Shown here piece after piece: positions 1,434 to 20,226 of a stretch of DNA of 25,885 nucleotides. Within the stretch, counting starts at the first letter, position 1. Each line of letters starts with the position of its first letter. Both the position numbers and the translations under genes were made by a program. The notes under the pieces were generated by a model that worked only from the letters and a program-made list of their open reading frames with translations, searched no databases and was not told the DNA's origin. Source of the DNA: Candidatus Odinarchaeota archaeon (lineage in GTDB: Archaea > Asgardarchaeota > Odinarchaeia > Odinarchaeales > Odinarchaeaceae). The stretch covers positions 1-25,885 of the forward strand of contig JAWBON010000014.1 in NCBI GenBank assembly GCA_038826135.1, written 5' to 3'.

Positions 1434-4400
1434 ATGGTTTACATAAAGAAGCTGGAAATGAAAGGGTTTAAATCATTCGGCGGCGAGAAAGTATCTTTAA
1501 ATTTTGAAAAAGGCTTCACCGCGATTGTAGGACCTAACGGAAGCGGCAAGTGTGTTACAGGGGAGACTCGAATATATTTAGCGAGCGGAGAGATTGTTAA
1601 AATATCAAAACTTGTAAACAGTAAACTTAATGCGGGTTACAAAATTAAATTAAAAGACGGATACATGAGTTATGGTGACGGGCAAGAAATTTTATGCTTG
1701 GATTTAAACGATTTAAGAATCATAAAAAAACCAGTCGCCGCTTATATTAAACGAAGATCCCCGGCAAAGCTTATAAAAATTAAAACACGGTCAGGGAAAA
1801 GTATAACCGCTACACCGTACCATCCTTTCTTTACATATAAAAACGGTTATATTGAAACTATAAGCGCTGAGGATTTGAAAACGGGCGCCTTCATAATAGT
1901 TACGGATGTTATTTCACTCTATGATTGCCCTTTACGGGTGGCGGGAAAATCAGCTGATTCAAGGGGTTTTTTTAATAAATTAAACCAGTTAACGCTCACA
2001 GTAAACGACAGTGAAAAACTAATAAATTCAGACATATATCTAGATGAAGTCACCTATCTTGAAGTTTCACCTTCGAGGGAGCGCTGGGTATACGACCTGT
2101 GTATAGCGGAACACCATAATTTTATCGCGAATAATATTATAATTCACAATAGCAATATTCTTGACGCTTTATGCTTTGTATTAGGTCATTTAAGCGCTAA
2201 AACATTGAGGGCGGGTGCATTCTCGGATTTAATCTACATTGATAAAAAAAATCAGAGCGCGGCTAAAGCAGCCACAGTAACCCTTCACCTAGACAACTCA
2301 GACCAAGGTATACAGGTTGAATCGAAAAACGTAGTTATAACTAGAAGCATCGATGTTGACGGTAATGGAACCTACCAGTTAAACGGTCAACGCGTGACAA
2401 GAGGGCAGATTATAGACATACTTAATTTAGCTGGCATAACACCGGATGGGTATAATATAGTTTTCCAAGGGCAATTAGCGCAAATGGTTTCAATGACACC
2501 TCTTGAAAGACGTTTACTAATAGAGAAAATAGCGGGTATAGCAGCATACGATGAAAAAAAGGAGAAGGCTAAAGAAGAGCTTGAAAAAGCTGAGAATAAT
2601 CTTAACCAAATTAATATTCTTTTAGATGAAATTAAAAACACGAAAGATAAATTATTAAAAGATAAGCAGGATGCTGAAAAATGGCTGAGCATAAACAGTG
2701 AAATAGAGAAACTAGAAGCCAGTATAATTTTCTACGAGATAAGAGAGTTAAACAAGAAAATAGAGGATTCTAAAAAAAGACTGGAAGAAAAAAAGATACA
2801 ATTAGAAGAAGTTGAGAAAAAACAGAAAGATTACAGCGATGAGAGAAGCCGTGCTCAGAAAAGAATTAACGAGATTGAAGAAGAGATAAGAAGCATACAA
2901 GAGAATCAGCTGAATATAATACATCAGTCTATTACTGAAAATAAATCCGAGCAGGCTAGAATAACCCAGGAATTAATCTATAACGATGAGGCTTTCAACT
3001 CAGCTAAAAAAGAATATGAAAGAATGAAACAAGAATTATCAAACTATGAGATAACCCGTGAAGAATCATATAACAAATTACAGGAAAACCGTGAACTTAA
3101 AAAAACATTAGATAATGAAATTTTCAATTTAAACAATGAAATAAACCAGATCACCAATTATATAGCTAATATTGATGCCAGCTTCGAAGATTATACTAAC
3201 AAGTTTAGGGATATAAGAAGTAAACTAAGCTTGAAAGAGGATGAATTGAAAAAACTACTTTTAGAAAACGAGAAAATAGACGGTGAAATCAACGCCCTCA
3301 ATGATAAATTAAAATATTATAATGAAATGTTGTTGAAAAATAGGGAAGGCCCGGATAGCCTCGCAAGTAGGAAAAAAGAGTTTGATGAAAAACTAGCTGC
3401 ACTTCAAAAAGAGAACAGCGTTTTAAACTTAGAGAAAGAGAAAATGGAGAATAAAATAACCCAGTTAAATGAGGAGAGTAAAAATCTCAGCTCAGAGATT
3501 CAAGCCAGAAAAGAAATGCTTATAGAGATTCGAACACGAGTGAACGCTGTTAGAGAGACAGCTAGTAGAGAACCGCTGAGAAACAGGGCTGTTGAAGCAA
3601 TACTGGAATTGAAGAAAAACATGGTAAACGGGATATTCGGAACAATAGCGGAGCTGGGCGCGGTTAGCTCTGAATATGTTAAAGCTATAGAAGTAGCAGC
3701 CGGAGGAAGATTAGACTACATAATTGTGAAAGATGATGAAACAGCAGCGAAATGTATTTCATATTTAAAAAATAAACGCATAGGGCGGGCTTCATTCCTA
3801 CCTTTAAATAAAATAAAACCCAACACTGTGAGAATTAATAATGAAAAAATAAAAGCCATACACGCTTTAGACGTGGTAAAATTCAAGGATGAGTTTAAAA
3901 CAGCTTTCGAATACGTGTTCGGGAGATCATACATTTTTAATAATTTACAAGAGGCTAGGGCTGTTGAAGAGGATAAAATCCAGAAAGTCACATTAGACGG
4001 TGACCTGATCACTCCATCAGGGCTAATGGTAGGCGGATACTACCAAACACCTGTCAAATTCACTTTAGAAGAGGAGCGGAGAATACCCGTTATAGAGAAG
4101 GAGATCCACGAGTTAAACACTAAACTTAACGATTTAAAGGAGCAGAGAGATAGAGAAATCGAAAAAAGTAATCGAATTAACATTAAACTCAGAGAATTAG
4201 ATAAAGAATATAATCTATTACTAGGCCAGAGCACAAGTCTCAACATAAGACTCAGCGAGTTAGATGCTTCAATTCAAGAGTTTCAAAAACAGATAGAAGA
4301 AGTTGAAAAACAACTCGCTGATAAAAATAGTGTTAAACAAGATTATGGGAGAAGACTTGAATTATTAAACAGGGAGATTAATAATCTTAAAAACGAGTAC

Positions 4401-5594
4401 GAGGAGATCAGCCAAATACTTGAGAGAAGCGAGGTTTCAAAAGTTAACAGAAGGCTTAAATCATTAGATGAGGAGAGAAATAGAAAAATTTCAACTCTAC
4501 GAGAAATAGATAATCAAATCACAAAGTTAGAAACAGAGGTACACGCTCAAATAGAACCTAAAATAAACGAATTAAAACAATCAATCTTAAACTTAGAGGA
4601 TAAAATACCGGGACTTGAAAAAACCATCCGAGAGAGAAAAGAGACTTTATCTGAACTAGAAAAGAGATTAAAAACATTAGACGAGGAAAAAACTAATGTT
4701 AGTAAAGAAGTTGAATTATTACAAGAAGAGAAAAAAGAACTGATTAAAAAACTAACGCTAATAGATGAAAAATTAGTAAATCTAGATAAGGAGAGAAACT
4801 CTTTAAACCTTGGAATTGCGAGAATGACCGCGAACCAAGAGACATACACATCACAGATGAATGATTTAAAAACCCGGGCTAAAAACTATCCCACTGATGA
4901 AATAAGGCTAGCAGATAACTTGGATGTTGAAAACATAAAGGTTAAAATCTCAGAACTGAAACAGGAGAAAAACCTCTTAGAACCTGTAAACCAGAAGGCG
5001 ATACAGGAATACGAGGGCGTGGAGAAAAGATTCGAAGAGCTTAACAGTAGAAGAATGAAGTTAATCGTTGAGAGAGATACTATACTTAAATTCATGGATG
5101 AGTTGGAAAGCGAGAAGACGAAAGTCTTCATGAACACCTACAGGGCGGTTGATGAAAACTTTAACAGAATATTCTCCCAACTTTCACCAAACGGTGAAGC
5201 GCATCTAGAATTAGAAGACAAACTACACCCGCTGCTCGGAGGGGTTAGAATAAAAGCTAAACCAGCTGGAAGAGAGATAGGCTATCTGGAGTCTATGTCA
5301 GGCGGGGAGAAATCGCTAACCGCATTAGCATTAATTTTCGCAATACAGCAATATCAACCAGCTCCATTCTACATATTCGACGAGATAGATTCCGCTTTAG
5401 ATAATGCTAATGTTGTAAAAGTGGCTGACCTAATAAAAGAGTTCTCAAAATACTCACAATTTATTGTAATAACATTAAGGGATATTATGATGGCTAGAGC
5501 TGAGAACCTGTTCGGCGTCACTAAAAGTAACAATATTTCTAAAATAGTGTCAGTGAAATTAGAGGAGGGAGTAAAATATGCAGAACGACAATGA
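1434..5594 (+). CDS. smc: Chromosome segregation ATPase SMC (intein-containing precursor, 1386 aa)
   Basis: Walker A GPNGSGK|S split by an insertion, Q-loop IVFQG, long coiled coils, hinge (GIFGTIAELG, AAGGRLDYIIV, GRASFLPL, TLDGDLITPSGLMVGG), signature MSGGE, Walker B FYIFDEIDSALD. Followed by scpA and scpB. Confidence 0.97.
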   Translation: MVYIKKLEMKGFKSFGGEKVSLNFEKGFTAIVGPNGSGKCVTGETRIYLASGEIVKISKLVNSKLNAGYKIKLKDGYMSYGDGQEILCLDLNDLRIIKKPVAAYIKRRSPAKLIKIKTRSGKSITATPYHPFFTYKNGYIETISAEDLKTGAFIIVTDVISLYDCPLRVAGKSADSRGFFNKLNQLTLTVNDSEKLINSDIYLDEVTYLEVSPSRERWVYDLCIAEHHNFIANNIIIHNSNILDALCFVLGHLSAKTLRAGAFSDLIYIDKKNQSAAKAATVTLHLDNSDQGIQVESKNVVITRSIDVDGNGTYQLNGQRVTRGQIIDILNLAGITPDGYNIVFQGQLAQMVSMTPLERRLLIEKIAGIAAYDEKKEKAKEELEKAENNLNQINILLDEIKNTKDKLLKDKQDAEKWLSINSEIEKLEASIIFYEIRELNKKIEDSKKRLEEKKIQLEEVEKKQKDYSDERSRAQKRINEIEEEIRSIQENQLNIIHQSITENKSEQARITQELIYNDEAFNSAKKEYERMKQELSNYEITREESYNKLQENRELKKTLDNEIFNLNNEINQITNYIANIDASFEDYTNKFRDIRSKLSLKEDELKKLLLENEKIDGEINALNDKLKYYNEMLLKNREGPDSLASRKKEFDEKLAALQKENSVLNLEKEKMENKITQLNEESKNLSSEIQARKEMLIEIRTRVNAVRETASREPLRNRAVEAILELKKNMVNGIFGTIAELGAVSSEYVKAIEVAAGGRLDYIIVKDDETAAKCISYLKNKRIGRASFLPLNKIKPNTVRINNEKIKAIHALDVVKFKDEFKTAFEYVFGRSYIFNNLQEARAVEEDKIQKVTLDGDLITPSGLMVGGYYQTPVKFTLEEERRIPVIEKEIHELNTKLNDLKEQRDREIEKSNRINIKLRELDKEYNLLLGQSTSLNIRLSELDASIQEFQKQIEEVEKQLADKNSVKQDYGRRLELLNREINNLKNEYEEISQILERSEVSKVNRRLKSLDEERNRKISTLREIDNQITKLETEVHAQIEPKINELKQSILNLEDKIPGLEKTIRERKETLSELEKRLKTLDEEKTNVSKEVELLQEEKKELIKKLTLIDEKLVNLDKERNSLNLGIARMTANQETYTSQMNDLKTRAKNYPTDEIRLADNLDVENIKVKISELKQEKNLLEPVNQKAIQEYEGVEKRFEELNSRRMKLIVERDTILKFMDELESEKTKVFMNTYRAVDENFNRIFSQLSPNGEAHLELEDKLHPLLGGVRIKAKPAGREIGYLESMSGGEKSLTALALIFAIQQYQPAPFYIFDEIDSALDNANVVKVADLIKEFSKYSQFIVITLRDIMMARAENLFGVTKSNNISKIVSVKLEEGVKYAERQ
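1551..2150 (+). mobile_element. Mini-intein (200 aa) in the SMC Walker A motif
   Basis: The in-frame insert starts with Cys (CVTGETRI, block A), has block B ITATPYHPFF and block F VYDLCI, ends NFIANNIIIHN (block G) and is followed by Ser +1. Removing it restores GPNGSGKSNILDAL. No LAGLIDADG motif visible. Confidence 0.95.
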
Positions 5595-8690: not shown

Positions 8691-9035
8691 TTAGAAAATA
8701 GTTTTCAGCGCTCTTATAACTAAGCTTAAACTAGATGATGCCTCCTTACCAAGCAATGCTAAAATACTGAATCCGCTTTTCGTTTCAATAACCAAGTAAC
8801 CTTTCTCAGTGGTTAAGCTTATAGTGGAGGCGGAGCCCTTATCCGAGGCTGAGGCTATTTCAGAAGATTTTTTTAAAAGCTCTATCGAAAGCGCCGTAAG
8901 CTTTTTCTTATCCAGTTCTGTTAAAGTCTGGCCGCAAATAACTTTCCCATTATTTTCAAAGGCGATTAAACCTTCTATTTCAGGTATCTCATCCATCATG
9001 GTGGCAAGTTTTTCCTCTATAACTTTAGGATCCAT
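8691..9035 (-). CDS. Roadblock/LC7 (MglB/longin-like fold) protein 1, divergent
   Basis: 114 aa with helix-IEGLIAFENNGKVI-helix-ISLTTEKGYLVI..ILALLG-helix layout. Confidence 0.72.
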   Translation of the reverse strand: MDPKVIEEKLATMMDEIPEIEGLIAFENNGKVICGQTLTELDKKKLTALSIELLKKSSEIASASDKGSASTISLTTEKGYLVIETKSGFSILALLGKEASSSLSLVIRALKTIF

Positions 9036-9239: not shown

Positions 9240-9536
<297 letters not shown>

Positions 9537-9598: not shown

Positions 9599-10072
9599 TT
9601 GATCAACATTAAAACCTTCGATGAGATACTAAGTAAGATTATTAAAAGCGAATCTGGCATAAAAAAAGTCATTCTAGTTGATAGAACAGGCCTTACAATA
9701 GCTCATGTATCTAAGTTTTCATATTATCCAGTCGACATAGATGGGATAGGAGCTATCGCAAGCGCTGTGTTCAGTGCAAGCGAGGAGCAGGGGAAAAATC
9801 TAGAGATCGGAGACTTAGATCTGTTAAGCTCAGAGTTTAGCGACGGGAAAATATTCGCGGCAAGCTGCGGTAAAGGAGTTTTAAGCGTGATCACAGATAA
9901 GGATGTAAATATAGGTATGGTCCGCCTTTTAATTAAAAAAACAAGCGAACAGTTAAAGGAAGTATTAGATGAGTTCCTAGCTGAAAAACCAGCGAGTAAA
10001 TTAAGCCTAGATAAGAAGGAAACATCCACCGAGGATTTGAAAGCTGCTCTAGGGGAACTTGAAAAAAGCTAG
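9599..10072 (+). CDS. Roadblock protein 3, LAMTOR2/MglB-like with C-terminal extension
   Basis: VILVDRTGLTIA, IGAIASAVFSASEEQGKNL, GKIFAA, VNIGMVRLLIKKTSEQL, plus a tail of about 30 aa ending in a likely helix. Confidence 0.85.
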   Translation: MINIKTFDEILSKIIKSESGIKKVILVDRTGLTIAHVSKFSYYPVDIDGIGAIASAVFSASEEQGKNLEIGDLDLLSSEFSDGKIFAASCGKGVLSVITDKDVNIGMVRLLIKKTSEQLKEVLDEFLAEKPASKLSLDKKETSTEDLKAALGELEKS

Positions 10073-10100: not shown

Positions 10101-10469
10101 ATGACACAGAAAGCTGAAACACTAGATAGCGTTCTTAGAGATTTAGAAGCGGCTGTTCCACAGATACAGGCTGCTGCAATAGTTAGCGTGGAAGGTTTAC
10201 CTATAGCATCTATACTGCCGTCAAAAGTGGATGAAACAATGATAGCTGCGATGACGGCTGCAATGCTATCGCTGGGGGAGAGAGCTGCAGCTGAACTGGA
10301 TAAAGGCGAGCTTGAACAAGTATATGTGAAAGGCAAGGACGGTTACATAATCGTTATGGGCGCCGGTGCGAACGCTGTATTAACATTAAGCGCAACGAAG
10401 GATGTTAAACTAGGCTTGATATTTCTAGAAATGGAGCGCGCTGCTAAAAAAATCGCTAAACTAGTTTAG
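10101..10469 (+). CDS. Roadblock protein 4, classical prokaryotic MglB-like type
   Basis: AAAIVSVEGLPIAS, IAAMTAAMLSLGERAAAELDKGELEQVYVKGKDGYII, KLGLIFLEM. Confidence 0.92.
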   Translation: MTQKAETLDSVLRDLEAAVPQIQAAAIVSVEGLPIASILPSKVDETMIAAMTAAMLSLGERAAAELDKGELEQVYVKGKDGYIIVMGAGANAVLTLSATKDVKLGLIFLEMERAAKKIAKLV

Positions 10470-10580
10470 AGAATTCTACATGCTCACCATTTCCTTCAAA
10501 CATATTTATGAAGCTGCGATTAAACACAATTACTCGGATTTAAATAATATAAAGTGATATATCGTTTTGAAGTGATTCCT

Positions 10581-11114
10581 ATGGAGCAGATCATTTCATA
10601 TAAGGGTATCACTCCTAAAATAGGTAAGGATACTATTATCAGTAGCACTGCGAGAATAATCGGGGATGTGAATATAGGAGATAAGTGCTATATAGGAGCT
10701 AATGTAACTGTGAGAGGGGATTTAGCCCACATAGTTATCGGCAACTATAATATAATAGAAGATGACACACTTATTTACCCCGGTGAAGAGTACTCTGATG
10801 GTGTTCTATCACACTCAGAGATATTAATCGGCAACTATGGTGTTATTGAAAAAAAATGTGTCATCCAAGCCAGCTACTTAGGAGACTATTTTAAAATATG
10901 TAACGGCTCTATAGTTGAAAAAGGCGTCCAGTTAAATGAAGGTGTTTTTATATTATCAGGATCTGTAGTAGCTAGTGGCTCCATCATACCACCTATGAGT
11001 GTTCTAATAGGTAACCCGGCGCATATACTTAGAAAACTCAGCTTCGGTGAAAAAGAGAGGCATGAATCATATATTGAATCCTACTATGAGCTTATGAAGA
11101 GAATCACCCAGTAA
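10581..11114 (+). CDS. Left-handed beta-helix protein, gamma-carbonic-anhydrase-like fold without Zn ligands; dynactin p25 (DCTN5)-like
   Basis: Hexapeptide repeats, VRGDLAH, IPPMSVLIGNPA and a C-terminal helix. The expected gamma-CA His positions read LIY, IEK and IQA. ATG 10581 follows GTGA; the track starts at GTG 10554. Confidence 0.8.
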   Translation: MEQIISYKGITPKIGKDTIISSTARIIGDVNIGDKCYIGANVTVRGDLAHIVIGNYNIIEDDTLIYPGEEYSDGVLSHSEILIGNYGVIEKKCVIQASYLGDYFKICNGSIVEKGVQLNEGVFILSGSVVASGSIIPPMSVLIGNPAHILRKLSFGEKERHESYIESYYELMKRITQ

Positions 11115-11117
11115 CAG

Positions 11118-12248
11118 GTGCGGGAGTTGACTATAAAATATCAGTGTTCAATATGTAAAAATTATACAACAGCGTACGAAGCTTATTTTTGCCCACTCTG
11201 CCAGGAAATAATATGCTATAACTGCACTAATCCTGAACCTGTATTGTATAAGTGCTTCAGATGCGGTAGAGTTTATAGTATTAAAGAAGCTAGAGAAAAT
11301 TTTACAGAGTGTAAAGATTGTTATAAGTGTCATTACTGTGGTGGTGATTTAAAAATTAAATATGCTAATAACAGGTATTTTTTCGAGTGCTTTCATTGCC
11401 TGTGGAGTTCTGAAAACCAGGAGCCTATAATCACTAGCCCGGATAAGTTAAATGTGATAAGAGAGGCGGGAAATATTTTACAAAACGATAGATTATATGA
11501 GGATTACGCCGTGTACTGCCCGAAATGTAAAAGCACATTGATTAACACAAAAAATAGGGTGGTGAATAGTTTAGCAAGTGTTTTCCCGAAAATCATGTTT
11601 AACACGAAATCAATACCTGTTAATACAAGGATAGATATATTCTACTGGGTTAAAAACACGAGGCCTGAAGGCTCATTTTTCCGTTTAGACTGGGAGGCTG
11701 GAAATAACTTTCAGATTATGCAGCTTAGTAGGGCTGCAGAGTTTGACTTCCACTCACCGTTTATTAAAACTCAGAAAACAAGTAAACTATCGATAAAAGC
11801 GGATAATACAGGGGAGCTGAATATATACGCGGATCTAAGCTATAAGTTTGATGAAATAAAGTATGGAGCGGGTAAAACAAAGATTAAATTGGGACCCATA
11901 ATCGCGTATCCTAGAATAGAGATCACCAGGATTTTAGAGTCACCACCCACATCCACAAAAGAGAACACTGTGAAAATATGTGTTAAAAACGAGGCTGAAC
12001 AGGAACTCCAGCGATTAATAGTTTCAGATATGATATTAGAGGGGGCCTTAGATTTTAAAAGAAGATACTGGGATATAAAAAATTTAGAGAAAGGAGGGGA
12101 GCTGCAATTAGCTTACAGTTTTAAAGCTGATCCTGCTGCAACCAGAATAAGATTCGATGTTTTACGCGGCAAGATCAGATTTTCAAGCTTCATGCCGCAA
12201 ATATTCTTCGATTATGTAGGAGCGTCTGAAATAGTTGAAATAGGTTGA
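11118..12248 (+). CDS. Multi-zinc-finger protein with beta-sandwich C-terminus; dynactin p62 (DCTN4)-like
   Basis: Eight CxxC pairs (Cys 10/13, 25/28, 33/36, 46/49, 65/68, 71/74, 91/94, 134/137), with YFCPLCQE, EAR....CKDCYKCHYC and YFFECFHCLWSS, then a beta-rich region. Starts 3 nt after the previous stop. Confidence 0.75.
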   Translation: MRELTIKYQCSICKNYTTAYEAYFCPLCQEIICYNCTNPEPVLYKCFRCGRVYSIKEARENFTECKDCYKCHYCGGDLKIKYANNRYFFECFHCLWSSENQEPIITSPDKLNVIREAGNILQNDRLYEDYAVYCPKCKSTLINTKNRVVNSLASVFPKIMFNTKSIPVNTRIDIFYWVKNTRPEGSFFRLDWEAGNNFQIMQLSRAAEFDFHSPFIKTQKTSKLSIKADNTGELNIYADLSYKFDEIKYGAGKTKIKLGPIIAYPRIEITRILESPPTSTKENTVKICVKNEAEQELQRLIVSDMILEGALDFKRRYWDIKNLEKGGELQLAYSFKADPAATRIRFDVLRGKIRFSSFMPQIFFDYVGASEIVEIG

Positions 12249-12937
12249 AAACAGAGGCGAATGATTTGATTAAGGCGGTTATATTCGACTTAGATGGGAC
12301 ACTCGTACATTTTAAAATAGATTATAAAAATGCCAGGGAACAGGTTAAAAATTACTTAACAAGGCTAGGTGTTCCCGAAGAGTATATGTTAAATCAACCT
12401 ATATTCACAGCCTTAGAGCAGGCAATCCGCTACTTAAAATCTAGAAAAACCAGTGAAAGTGAAGTTAACAGGATAAAAGAAGATATCAATAAAATTGTCT
12501 CCCAGTTCGAGTTGAAAGCGGCTAATGAAACATTTTTAACACCTAACGCTAAGGAAACCCTCAGCGAGGTAAAAAGATTAGGGGTTAAAATAGGTTTATT
12601 CACAATTAATAACAGGCAGGTTACAGAGATTGTGCTAAATAAAACTGGTATAAAAAAATTTTTTAACATTATTGTAAGCAGGGATGATACGAGCGCGATT
12701 AAACCTGATGATGAACACTTATTAACAGTTACTAGGAAGCTTGGTGTGGAGCCAGAGCAGAGTGTTGTTGTAGGTGACACGGTTTATGATTTTCAAGCGG
12801 CTAAGAGATTAGGGGCTTTAACTATAGGCGTTGAAGGATTATATGACGCTACATACCTAAAGAATGAGGGTAAAGTAGACTATGTTGTAAAAGATCTGTC
12901 AGAGATAATTAATATTATAAACAGATTTATTATTTAA
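12245..12937 (+). CDS. HAD-superfamily hydrolase (phosphoglycolate phosphatase-like)
   Basis: Motif I IFDLDGTL, motif II FTINN, motif III KP, motif IV VVGDTVYD. 4-nt TTGA overlap with the upstream gene. Confidence 0.92.
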   Translation: MKTEANDLIKAVIFDLDGTLVHFKIDYKNAREQVKNYLTRLGVPEEYMLNQPIFTALEQAIRYLKSRKTSESEVNRIKEDINKIVSQFELKAANETFLTPNAKETLSEVKRLGVKIGLFTINNRQVTEIVLNKTGIKKFFNIIVSRDDTSAIKPDDEHLLTVTRKLGVEPEQSVVVGDTVYDFQAAKRLGALTIGVEGLYDATYLKNEGKVDYVVKDLSEIINIINRFII

Positions 12938-13373: not shown

Positions 13374-13928
13374 TTAAGATTCTTCTTTAAACAGGCTGGT
13401 AATAAGTTTTGAACATGATTTATCAAACTCTGGTGGGAGAAGTTTAAGATTTTCAATCAAATACTTTGTAAGCTCCTCAGCCAAGCCCTCTAAATCTAGT
13501 GGCTTTAACCCTAGAAATTGTTCAAGAACAGTTTTTCTAAGAGCTGCACGCGCTGCAGATCTAACCACATTATATACTATATCATCCCTATCTAAATAGA
13601 AAATATTATTATCGTTATCGGGGAAAATGATTAACTCCAGTTTATCAACGTATTCTTGTAAAGCGTCCTCCAACCTCCTTCTATCAATATTAGTGTCCGC
13701 ACAGAAGCTGTCAAAGTTCTTCGCATATATACGGTTATTAGGTTTATGAGATGCGATATAGGCTGCAGCCCATATCACAGCATCATCTAAAACATCTGGA
13801 TTAGAAGCTTCTATTAGTCGGGCTAAAAGACTAAGAGAGTATAAAATAGTTCTAATGTTTAAACCTGATTTTGACAACAGATTATTATAAGCGCGAATAA
13901 TATCTTCTGCTTGACGTTTTCTCCCCAT
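13374..13928 (-). CDS. Hypothetical helical protein (possible cyclin/TFB-repeat-like segment)
   Basis: 184-aa ORF with AGGTG upstream of the ATG and a typical protein composition. Family not recognised with confidence. Confidence 0.6.
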   Translation of the reverse strand: MGRKRQAEDIIRAYNNLLSKSGLNIRTILYSLSLLARLIEASNPDVLDDAVIWAAAYIASHKPNNRIYAKNFDSFCADTNIDRRRLEDALQEYVDKLELIIFPDNDNNIFYLDRDDIVYNVVRSAARAALRKTVLEQFLGLKPLDLEGLAEELTKYLIENLKLLPPEFDKSCSKLITSLFKEES

Positions 13929-14249: not shown

Positions 14250-15458
14250 ATGTTTTTAAAAGAGGTTCAAGAATTGGTTAATCAGTTAAATAGTAAGGAT
14301 ACTGGTTTAAGAGGTGTTTATGTAGCTAATACTGGTATAAGTATGATCGACGAAGAGGCGGGTAAACTTTTCTATAGAGGTTATTTAGTTAACACGCTTA
14401 CAAATCATTCAAACTATGAGGAGACAGCGTATCTCATAATGCACGGGAAGTTACCTGTAAAAGAAGAATTAGAGAAGTTCAGCTTATCCTTAGCCTCTGA
14501 GAGATTTATACCTCAAGAGATTCTAGAATTCATGGAGGATATACCTAGAGAGTCCCCCCCTATGGATGTACTCCAATCAACGATTAGCATACTCGCACAC
14601 TATGACCCGGATATTTATGACCAGTCTAAAGCAGCGCATTATAGACAATCAATAAGAATCATAGCTAAAATCCCAACAATAGTAGCTGCATGGGATAGAA
14701 TACGGAAAAATATGAGCCCTGTTAAGCCTAATAAAGCGTTATCTCACACTGATAATTTTCTTTACATGCTCTTCGGTGAAAGAGTCCCCCCCAAAGTGGA
14801 GAGATGCTTCAACATATCTATGATAGCGCATGCGGAGCATTCATTTAACGCTTCAACTTTTGCAGCTAGAATAGTGGCTTCAACTAACGCTCATGTATAT
14901 TCATCAATAGTGGCGGCGATTGGAGCGTTATCTGGAGATCTTCACGGAGGCGCCTGCTACCAAGTCATGAGAAATCTTATAGAAATAGGCACACCGGAAA
15001 AAGTTAGTGAATGGGTGGTCAACCGGTTAGAAAACAATAAGAAGATAAGTGGAATGGGGCATGCCGTGTATAAAACAACAGACCCGCGGGTTAGAATACT
15101 TGATAAATGTATCCGTTCATTAATCGGCGAGAGCGGTGACAATAAGTATTATAAAATGATAAAGCTGATTGAAAAATATACGAAAAAAGAGTTTAAAAAG
15201 AGGAAGGGGATTGACATATATCCAAACGTTGACCTTTACAGCGCTGTTCTTTACAACATTATAGGGATCAACTACGATCTTTACCCACCTATTTTCGCCC
15301 TTTCTAGGAGTGTAGGCTGGTGCTCACATGTGATAGAGCAGAAGTACCCTGACCCGCCGCTTAAACCAGTCTTGTATAGACCGTTAGCAGATTATAAAGG
15401 GCTATATTATGGACCTAACGGTGGACGGTATATATCGATAGATAAAAGAAAATCTTAA
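14250..15458 (+). CDS. gltA: Citrate synthase (citrate/2-methylcitrate synthase family)
   Basis: GLRGV, KLFYRGY, HAEHSFNASTFAARIVAST, LHGGA, GMGHAVYKTTDPR, YPNVDLYS, IFALSRSVGW.SH. Citrate versus methylcitrate specificity not resolved. Confidence 0.92.
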   Translation: MFLKEVQELVNQLNSKDTGLRGVYVANTGISMIDEEAGKLFYRGYLVNTLTNHSNYEETAYLIMHGKLPVKEELEKFSLSLASERFIPQEILEFMEDIPRESPPMDVLQSTISILAHYDPDIYDQSKAAHYRQSIRIIAKIPTIVAAWDRIRKNMSPVKPNKALSHTDNFLYMLFGERVPPKVERCFNISMIAHAEHSFNASTFAARIVASTNAHVYSSIVAAIGALSGDLHGGACYQVMRNLIEIGTPEKVSEWVVNRLENNKKISGMGHAVYKTTDPRVRILDKCIRSLIGESGDNKYYKMIKLIEKYTKKEFKKRKGIDIYPNVDLYSAVLYNIIGINYDLYPPIFALSRSVGWCSHVIEQKYPDPPLKPVLYRPLADYKGLYYGPNGGRYISIDKRKS

Positions 15459-15979
15459 GTTAACGCTTTAATCACAGTCCATCTTAAAGCTCTCTCAATT
15501 TCTTTCAGCCGACTCTGATCCCGGTAATTTTCAATAAGAATCCTTTTAACCGTTGAATCTTTTTCTTCGATCAAGTAGCGGAAAACCGATTTCAGAACCG
15601 CACTTTTCTGTTTAATAATATTTTCATCCTCATTCTTGTATTTCTCTAACACTTTCGGTATGAAAAATGATTGAAGTGATGGTGACTTAACGCTTATCTT
15701 CACATCGCTGGCAGGTGTGAATATTATTTTATTCTCAGTAACTTCAAGCTCGCCTAAAATATTTCCAGCATTATCCTTGATCTCTCTAGCACCGCTAACC
15801 TTAACAGGCTTAGTAAGTTCATCAGCTGTTTTAAGACTGGTCTTAACAAGGAATAAGTCTATAGCTTTAACGAAGTCTTTATACTCAGCTAATTTAGCCT
15901 CTAAGTCATCAATTTGATCCTCTAAGAAGGCTTTCAACTTAGCTAATGCTTCAACCGGTTTATCATCTTTACCAGACAT
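15455..15979 (-). CDS. Hypothetical protein with N-terminal coiled coil
   Basis: 174-aa ORF with heptad-like LKAFLEDQIDDLEAKLAEYKDFVKAID. Its stop overlaps the citrate synthase stop (TTAA 15455-15458). Confidence 0.7.
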   Translation of the reverse strand: MSGKDDKPVEALAKLKAFLEDQIDDLEAKLAEYKDFVKAIDLFLVKTSLKTADELTKPVKVSGAREIKDNAGNILGELEVTENKIIFTPASDVKISVKSPSLQSFFIPKVLEKYKNEDENIIKQKSAVLKSVFRYLIEEKDSTVKRILIENYRDQSRLKEIERALRWTVIKALT

Positions 15980-19863: not shown

Positions 19864-20226
19864 ATGACTGGTAAAAACTGGAGAAAAATATACTTTCAAA
19901 TATTCCATGAAGGGAGTGAAAAACCTGTATGTGTTTGTAGAGCGGATAGAATAAACGTCGACGATGTTAAAGGTTCTAATATCACCGGCAGCATAGAGAA
20001 TTTCTTTCCATTAATGGGTTCCATTATAGAACTCTTATCCGACGCGGGTTTTTCAGGAAGTACTAAAAAATATGTGATATGCTGGGCTGATGAGAGAATA
20101 GAAGATGAAGATAAGAAGTGGTTGAAGCTTGTGGGTGTTAGATTCTTAGAGGCGATTGATAGCATAGGAACATGTGATAAACAAAGATACAGGTGCAGAT
20201 TTATTGCTGAAAAATTTGTAGATTAA
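19864..20226 (+). CDS. Hypothetical protein
   Basis: 120-aa ORF with AGGTG upstream of the ATG, co-oriented with leuS. No family recognised. Confidence 0.6.
   Translation: MTGKNWRKIYFQIFHEGSEKPVCVCRADRINVDDVKGSNITGSIENFFPLMGSIIELLSDAGFSGSTKKYVICWADERIEDEDKKWLKLVGVRFLEAIDSIGTCDKQRYRCRFIAEKFVD

Follow-up and report, generated by a model that had tools for sequence, protein, structure and literature searches.

Does the genome of an Odinarchaeial archaeon encode a relative of dynactin subunit 4 (DCTN4, p62), and what might such a protein do in a cell of this kind? Dynactin has been treated as a complex of eukaryotes only, one that the last eukaryotic common ancestor already possessed in full (PMC3583065), and p62 was described, at the time its structure was solved, as having no structural homologues (PMC8047447). 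The gene that raises the question lies in a stretch of DNA of 25,885 nucleotides, which is called the window here. The window is archaeal, encoding ribosomal protein S8e, a DUF211 protein, an intein-bearing SMC protein with ScpA and ScpB, and LeuRS. Its closest relatives come from Odinarchaeia, among them OdinLCB4_005355 of "Candidatus Odinarchaeum yellowstonii," at 69% identity. The intein of the SMC gene (1434 to 5594, forward strand) occupies residues 53 to 239 (Intein_splicing), just past the region of the N-terminal ATPase P loop, and the genes for ScpA and ScpB come next. Three further ORFs of 120 to 184 amino acids (13374 to 13928 and 15455 to 15979 on the reverse strand and 19864 to 20226 on the forward strand) match no Pfam family at an E value of ≤0.001.

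The p62-like gene (11118 to 12248, forward strand) is an ORF of 376 amino acids, counted from a GTG start, with the stop codon TGA at 12246 to 12248. The original prediction had let the gene end at 11906; the ORF actually reaches 12248, and position 11906 (residue 263) marks nearly exactly the end of the p62-like part, an extra domain beginning there (residues 263 to 265). All of the sequence strings that had been quoted for the protein are present in the translation of 11118 to 12248. The TTG codon at 11127 may be the true start rather than the GTG at 11118, since the relatives begin with M[TSP]V[KE]YQC at that position.

The cysteine signature of the protein is the first point of likeness to p62. 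A script-based count gives 17 cysteines and eight CxxC motifs (residues 10, 25, 33, 46, 65, 71, 91, and 134), and C68-Y-K-C71, between the fifth and sixth motifs, is the sole two-residue spacer. The rule described for DCTN4 comprises eight CxxC motifs, no histidine in place of a cysteine, a two-residue spacer between the fifth and sixth motifs only, and an eighth motif far downstream (PMC3583065; Hammesfahr and Kollmar), and the archaeal protein agrees with it at each point. The 16 cysteines of the motifs are invariant across 11 archaeal sequences, down to overall identities of 21 to 27%. The distance between the seventh and eighth motifs is 39 amino acids, compared with about 150 in eukaryotic p62. 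The eighth motif of the archaeal protein aligns with the eighth of p62, both in hhalign and in the comparison of the archaeal profile with PDB sequences, and by homology only this motif (C134/C137) would be expected to complete a Zn site with an N-terminal pair, as in p62. The human p62 strings used for the initial comparison agree with the DCTN4 chain sequences, both in the N-terminal zinc region and at the late RCRKCEHNL. The C-terminal "LGP," which had been presented as a further shared element, did not hold up as a family feature, since it is not conserved in eukaryotes, with only 4 of 29 eukaryotic p62 tails resembling it.

Single-model searches recover little of this relationship. The Pfam model Dynactin_p62 (PF05502) has no match to the window protein at an E value of ≤1, and two relatives, P0011 and P0013, score 18.4 and 24.0 bits, both under the cutoff of 25.3 bits. 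Pfam and NCBIfam searches with the p62-like protein alone gave nothing useful, and because these collections do not recognize it, public records label the protein hypothetical. A profile of seven Odinarchaeial sequences, searched against 1.84 billion representative proteins, retrieved 73 matches at the cutoff E value of ≤1e-3; past the archaeal family itself, nearly all of them pair query residues 1 to 100 with their own N termini. The Dynactin_p62 domain of Pfam is carried by 61 of the 71 sequences scanned, with a best E value of 2e-68. Among the matches are a nematode DCTN4 (Litomosoides) and a chytrid protein of the p62 family (Gorgonomyces), with further ones (EukProt) from Chromosphaera (an ichthyosporean), Squamamoeba (an amoebozoan), and Furgasonia (a ciliate), and several eukaryotic supergroups are therefore covered.

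Profile-to-profile comparison of 11 archaeal with 29 eukaryotic p62 sequences by hhalign gave a probability of 99.8% and an E value of 2.3e-28 over 190 columns, in an alignment that passes through the eighth CxxC motif into the beta strands beyond. With all cysteines masked in both alignments, the match still has a probability of 96.4% and an E value of 1.4e-9. The cysteine-free beta part by itself matches p62 weakly (47%; E value, 2e-4), yet at the correct colinear position, and the last 111 residues have no match to p62 by hhalign. Against PDB sequences, the seven-sequence profile ranked RPB9 zinc ribbons first and DCTN4 at an E value of only 0.25; four diverged relatives had to be added for DCTN4 to come first, which it then did with an E value of 1.7e-8, the next match having 0.003. 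The original prediction had named the lack of a significant match to Dynactin_p62 as grounds for giving up the homology. Such a match is indeed lacking with the single Pfam HMM, whereas family profiles retrieve p62 at the values given above.

The predicted fold extends the likeness beyond the cysteines. An AlphaFold2 model, computed from the eleven archaeal sequences only and without templates, has a mean pLDDT of 90 and a pTM of 0.73. In Foldseek, the top four PDB matches of this model are all DCTN4 chains (E values, 2.9e-12 to 9e-9; TM score, about 0.5), and DCTN4 also makes up all of the top five matches in the Swiss-Prot part of the AlphaFold database. VIA-align, applied to the Foldseek list, superposed model residues 1 to 265 onto residues 5 to 460 of the DCTN4 chain (Z score, 15.6; root mean square deviation [rmsd], 3.9 Å; 252 residues), and a wide VIA-align search of 48,161 representatives, independent of Foldseek, placed 6ZNL chain Y first (Z score, 13.6), the lower rows covering Ig-like domains only or having rmsd values above 10 Å. 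p62 consists of a beta-sandwich, formed by its N- and C-terminal sheets, and a central zinc saddle (PMC8047447; Lau et al.). The match of model residues 1 to 265 to the whole of p62 in these searches indicates that, in the predicted structure, the first 265 residues represent all of p62. The generic array of independent zinc ribbons that had been envisaged as the adverse outcome was not obtained; the predicted fold matches whole p62, saddle and beta-sandwich, and p62 is at the top in three independent structure searches.

In the model, residues 10 to 137 (11145 to 11528) would form the zinc saddle, held by the eight CxxC motifs in four predicted sites for up to four Zn ions, and the N-terminal strand together with the beta-rich residues 139 to 265 (11532 to 11912) would form the p62-type beta-sandwich, as judged from VIA-align and hhalign. 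As had been proposed from the sequence, the long central region of p62 is reduced to about 35 amino acids (hhalign). This short linker, residues 98 to 133 (11409 to 11516), with one short helix at residues 110 to 120, takes the place of two elements of eukaryotic p62, its long helix and its disordered loop for adaptor binding, according to the hhalign gap structure, the DSSP assignment of the model, and the anatomy of p62 (PMC8047447). Residues 266 to 376 (11913 to 12245) are an extra Ig-like beta-sandwich domain, without a counterpart in eukaryotic p62, whose best structural matches are TRAP-beta (Z score, 12) and macroglobulin MG domains (Z score, about 10). The original reading of the gene as DCTN4-like is thus borne out far above chance by hhalign (E value, 2.3e-28), by the profile comparison with the PDB (1.7e-8), and by Foldseek (2.9e-12), and we are highly confident that this archaeal gene encodes a genuine, if compact, homologue of DCTN4.

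Of 400 Asgard genomes sampled, 8 have full-length members of this family, namely, all 6 genomes of the Odinarchaeial order and 2 of a lineage designated f33. The distribution is patchy, comprising two Odinarchaeial families, one other lineage, and one divergent variant, and the p62-like proteins are 27 to 40% identical between lineages. The LeuRS identity of 45% shows only that f33 is a distant Asgard lineage. The labels given by the submitters ("Hodarchaeota" and "Promethearchaeota") disagree with the lineage grouping used here, and one genome so labeled belongs to the window's own order. The divergent variant, a 458-amino-acid protein (L040:3518-4891, reverse strand; genome G308, family f28), has a double zinc ribbon at its C terminus in addition to beta-rich domains and a p62-like zinc module (E value, 3.5e-12 over query residues 2 to 179), and its gene lacks a beta-helix gene as a neighbor. 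A tree built for the zinc module puts this variant on a long branch within the eukaryotic p62 sequences, a placement that is unreliable.

A partly degenerate zinc module of the p62 type also heads proteins of about 800 amino acids in many Lokiarchaeial-type genomes (L037:4911-7319 and L039:4558-6906, both on the reverse strand, and also L016 to L036). Past the module, these proteins have winged-helix, PCI, UFL1-like, and DDRGK-like repeats and a Vps28-like C terminus. By hhalign, their module matches the Odinarchaeial family with a probability of 98.3% and eukaryotic p62 with one of 97.3%. Since many Lokiarchaeial-type genomes encode such proteins, the module seems to be a building block used more widely in Asgard archaea.

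The constant companion of the full-length family is a gene for a left-handed beta-helix protein of the gamma-carbonic anhydrase fold with a C-terminal helix (10554 to 11114, forward strand; likely ATG start at 10581, giving 177 amino acids). It ends 3 nucleotides before the p62-like gene, and its product has 177 to 186 amino acids, according to the start (10581 or 10554). In 10 of 10 loci examined, from three Asgard lineages, the p62-like gene is immediately preceded by a beta-helix gene; the loci belong to the genus of the window, to another family in its order, to an additional Odinarchaeial-type lineage, and to the distant lineage f33, and their p62-like proteins are 27 to 70% identical across lineages. 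At the three positions of the histidine triad of gamma-carbonic anhydrases, the window's beta-helix protein has Y, K, and Q. The triad is lost in all 12 p62-linked beta-helix clusters, mostly to Y/K/Q, and HHH is kept in 105 of the 109 nearest other relatives. The genome that contains the window has a separate canonical gamma-carbonic anhydrase gene with an intact triad (L048:1414-1932, reverse strand, contig C13), which marks the p62-linked protein as a diverged, dead paralogue. Because the triad is lost in the p62-linked clusters and a canonical gene exists apart from them, the sequences point to the partner as a non-enzymatic offshoot of the gamma-carbonic anhydrase fold, the fold family of p25 and p27, that is co-inherited with the p62-like gene.

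The beta-helix protein is not closer to p25 than to gamma-carbonic anhydrases in comparisons with PDB sequences and structures. It scores 87 bits with gamma-carbonic anhydrase, 50 bits with DCTN5, and 34 bits with DCTN6; in structure, the gamma-carbonic anhydrases reach Z scores of 27 to 29 and DCTN5 25.6 (rmsd, 1.6; 162 residues), and its nearest relatives are prokaryotic. The Pfam model for DCTN5 (PF21711) does match the gene at 10554 to 11114 with 53.7 bits (cutoff, 40), but many gamma-carbonic anhydrases of bacteria and archaea are also hit by this model, whose cutoff is exceeded in one control genome as well. Owing to this lack of specificity, a DCTN5 match in a prokaryote is no evidence of a dynactin subunit, and the match was rejected as a sign of p25 identity.

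The overall explanation that we favor on balance is that an archaeal p62 homologue would form a complex with a dead beta-helix protein and set its saddle on the pointed end of actin. The p62-like protein would be made together with the beta-helix protein encoded upstream. The two would then make up a stable heterocomplex without enzymatic function, just as p62 holds p25 in dynactin, where p25 is held mainly by p62 (PMC8047447); a complex of the p62-p25 type is probable. A structure prediction of the p62-like protein with the beta-helix protein and four Zn ions had a score of 0.01, which counts neither for nor against binding. The saddle of the complex would dock on an actin-family protomer at its pointed-end face, the protomer in this case being the product of the genome's single actin gene. 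That the two proteins make up a pointed-end complex on Asgard actin filaments is a tentative part of this explanation, and the function that we infer for the p62-like protein does not extend to dynein-based transport, of which nothing here implies any.

The main rival explanation accepts the protein as a true p62 homologue and gives it an ancestral job unrelated to actin-family filaments, namely, that of a zinc-stabilized scaffold elsewhere, which eukaryotes later recruited into dynactin; we consider it possible, if rather doubtful. The processes that such a scaffold might serve include that of the translationally coupled HAD phosphatase or those of the neighboring Roadblock and small-GTPase signaling proteins. 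The gene for a HAD-family hydrolase (12245 to 12937, forward strand) begins with a TTG codon that overlaps the stop codon of the p62-like gene by 4 nucleotides, and it is kept downstream in the Odinarchaeial-type loci. Four Roadblock/LC7 genes lie in a row directly upstream of the beta-helix gene (8691 to 9035 on the reverse strand and 9252 to 9536, 9599 to 10072, and 10101 to 10469 on the forward strand). However, f33 loci lack the HAD gene, and loci of both f2 and f33 lack the Roadblock genes; only the beta-helix partner is constant. Since their adjacency is not conserved outside the window's genus, the Roadblock genes are treated as context only, and a link through them to the dynein light chain was rejected on the same observation.

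The same rival draws on the related zinc module of the Lokiarchaeial-type proteins, which would show the module in use in other contexts, and on the rest of the genome, in which no other dynactin part was detected. No dynamitin, CapZ-beta, CAP-Gly protein, or dynein heavy chain was found in this 93%-complete genome, in searches run without a positive control, and beside the one actin gene no second actin of the Arp1 or Arp11 type was found. In dynactin, p62 is seated on Arp11, where an Arp1 filament has its pointed end, and shoulder and barbed-end subunits complete the complex. The conservation of the whole p62 architecture, beyond the zinc module, stands against this rival. A tubulin-type gene is known for Odinarchaeota, and the genome has one (G000:C69:3717-4070, forward strand; Tubulin_C, 52.8 bits; 429-amino-acid ORF). 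Tubulin_C was found in f1 and f2, but the two f33 genomes with the p62-like gene pair gave no match to it, and a strict link between tubulin and the pair was therefore dismissed.

Horizontal transfer from a eukaryote to Odinarchaeia, which would be silent on the origin of dynactin, is very unlikely. The patchy distribution among Asgard genomes would fit it, as would the fact that the nearest non-archaeal relatives are eukaryotic p62 proteins. In the zinc-module tree, however, the eukaryotes form a starred clade (support, 99/99) and the Lokiarchaeial-type modules another (100/100), and the Odinarchaeial-type proteins lie between them on short branches, outside the eukaryotes, which argues against a recent transfer from a eukaryote; the tree has about 100 columns and unlabeled eukaryotes and is a rough test only. 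The family also appears to be old in archaea, given its low identity between lineages and conserved operon structure; the partner's nearest relatives are prokaryotic, other Asgard proteins widely contain a related module, and the locus is without compositional anomaly, the GC content of the window being about 36% with no local deviation. A chance resemblance of generic zinc ribbons and Ig-like domains to p62, to which the first ranking of RPB9 by the narrower profile and the many middling structural matches of Ig-like domains (Z scores, 10 to 12) would lend some color, is more improbable still and already largely refuted, as the matches are almost only p62 among the 1.84 billion proteins, the signal persists after cysteine masking, motif count and spacer rule match exactly, and no structure other than p62 covers residues 1 to 265 at a low rmsd.

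In the literature searched, no publication on an archaeal p62-like protein was found; the compact archaeal variant is new to the p62 family, which was found described only in eukaryotes. If Asgard archaea have a p62 relative of full architecture, accompanied by a beta-helix protein, the eukaryotic signature proteins would gain a cytoskeletal member, and the pointed-end complex a pre-eukaryotic origin. If the reading of the pair as a pointed-end complex is true, p62 bound the end of an actin-family filament before Arp1/Arp11, dynein, and the rest of dynactin existed. As a small system of two proteins from a thermophile, the archaeal pair lends itself to asking what role p62 had before dynein existed.

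Three known or related systems can be set beside the archaeal pair. The Lokiarchaeial-type proteins of about 800 amino acids (L037 and L039) share with p62 only their N-terminal 100 to 150 residues, which are homologous to the zinc module; several of their CxxC motifs are degenerate, they have neither the p62 beta-sandwich nor a beta-helix neighbor, and their downstream domains are wholly different. p25 and p27 of dynactin resemble the beta-helix partner in having a left-handed beta-helix and a packed C-terminal helix, and the likeness extends to the lack of the gamma-carbonic anhydrase metal triad in the archaeal protein and to the place of its gene beside the p62-like gene. The archaeal protein differs in being a single dead paralogue rather than one of a pair and in being nearer to prokaryotic gamma-carbonic anhydrases. 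DCTN4 itself (PF05502), known from the structures 6ZNL (chain Y), 9B7J (chain K), 7Z8F, and 8PR4, has about 460 amino acids compared with the 376 of the archaeal protein. Animal p62 has a long helix and a disordered loop that binds adaptors (site 1), both missing from the archaeal protein, as follows from the gap of 39 instead of about 150 amino acids between the seventh and eighth CxxC motifs; this element, which contacts beta-actin and cargo adaptors, is also missing in the p62 of Aspergillus (PMC8047447). The archaeal protein further differs in its extra C-terminal Ig-like domain, its scores under the Pfam threshold, and its place in an archaeal operon, and the host genome differs from a dynactin-bearing one in having no detectable Arp1/Arp11, shoulder subunits, or dynein. 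What DCTN4 and the archaeal protein have in common are the eight CxxC motifs with the two-residue spacer between the fifth and sixth; the late eighth motif followed by beta strands; the non-cysteine residues of YFC, the alanine of the "EA" motif, and the Y..C..C.W.S knuckle; the combination of a zinc saddle with a beta-sandwich (Z scores, 13.6 to 15.6 over about 250 residues of the predicted model); and a beta-helix companion, which in the archaeon is known as the product of the neighboring gene.
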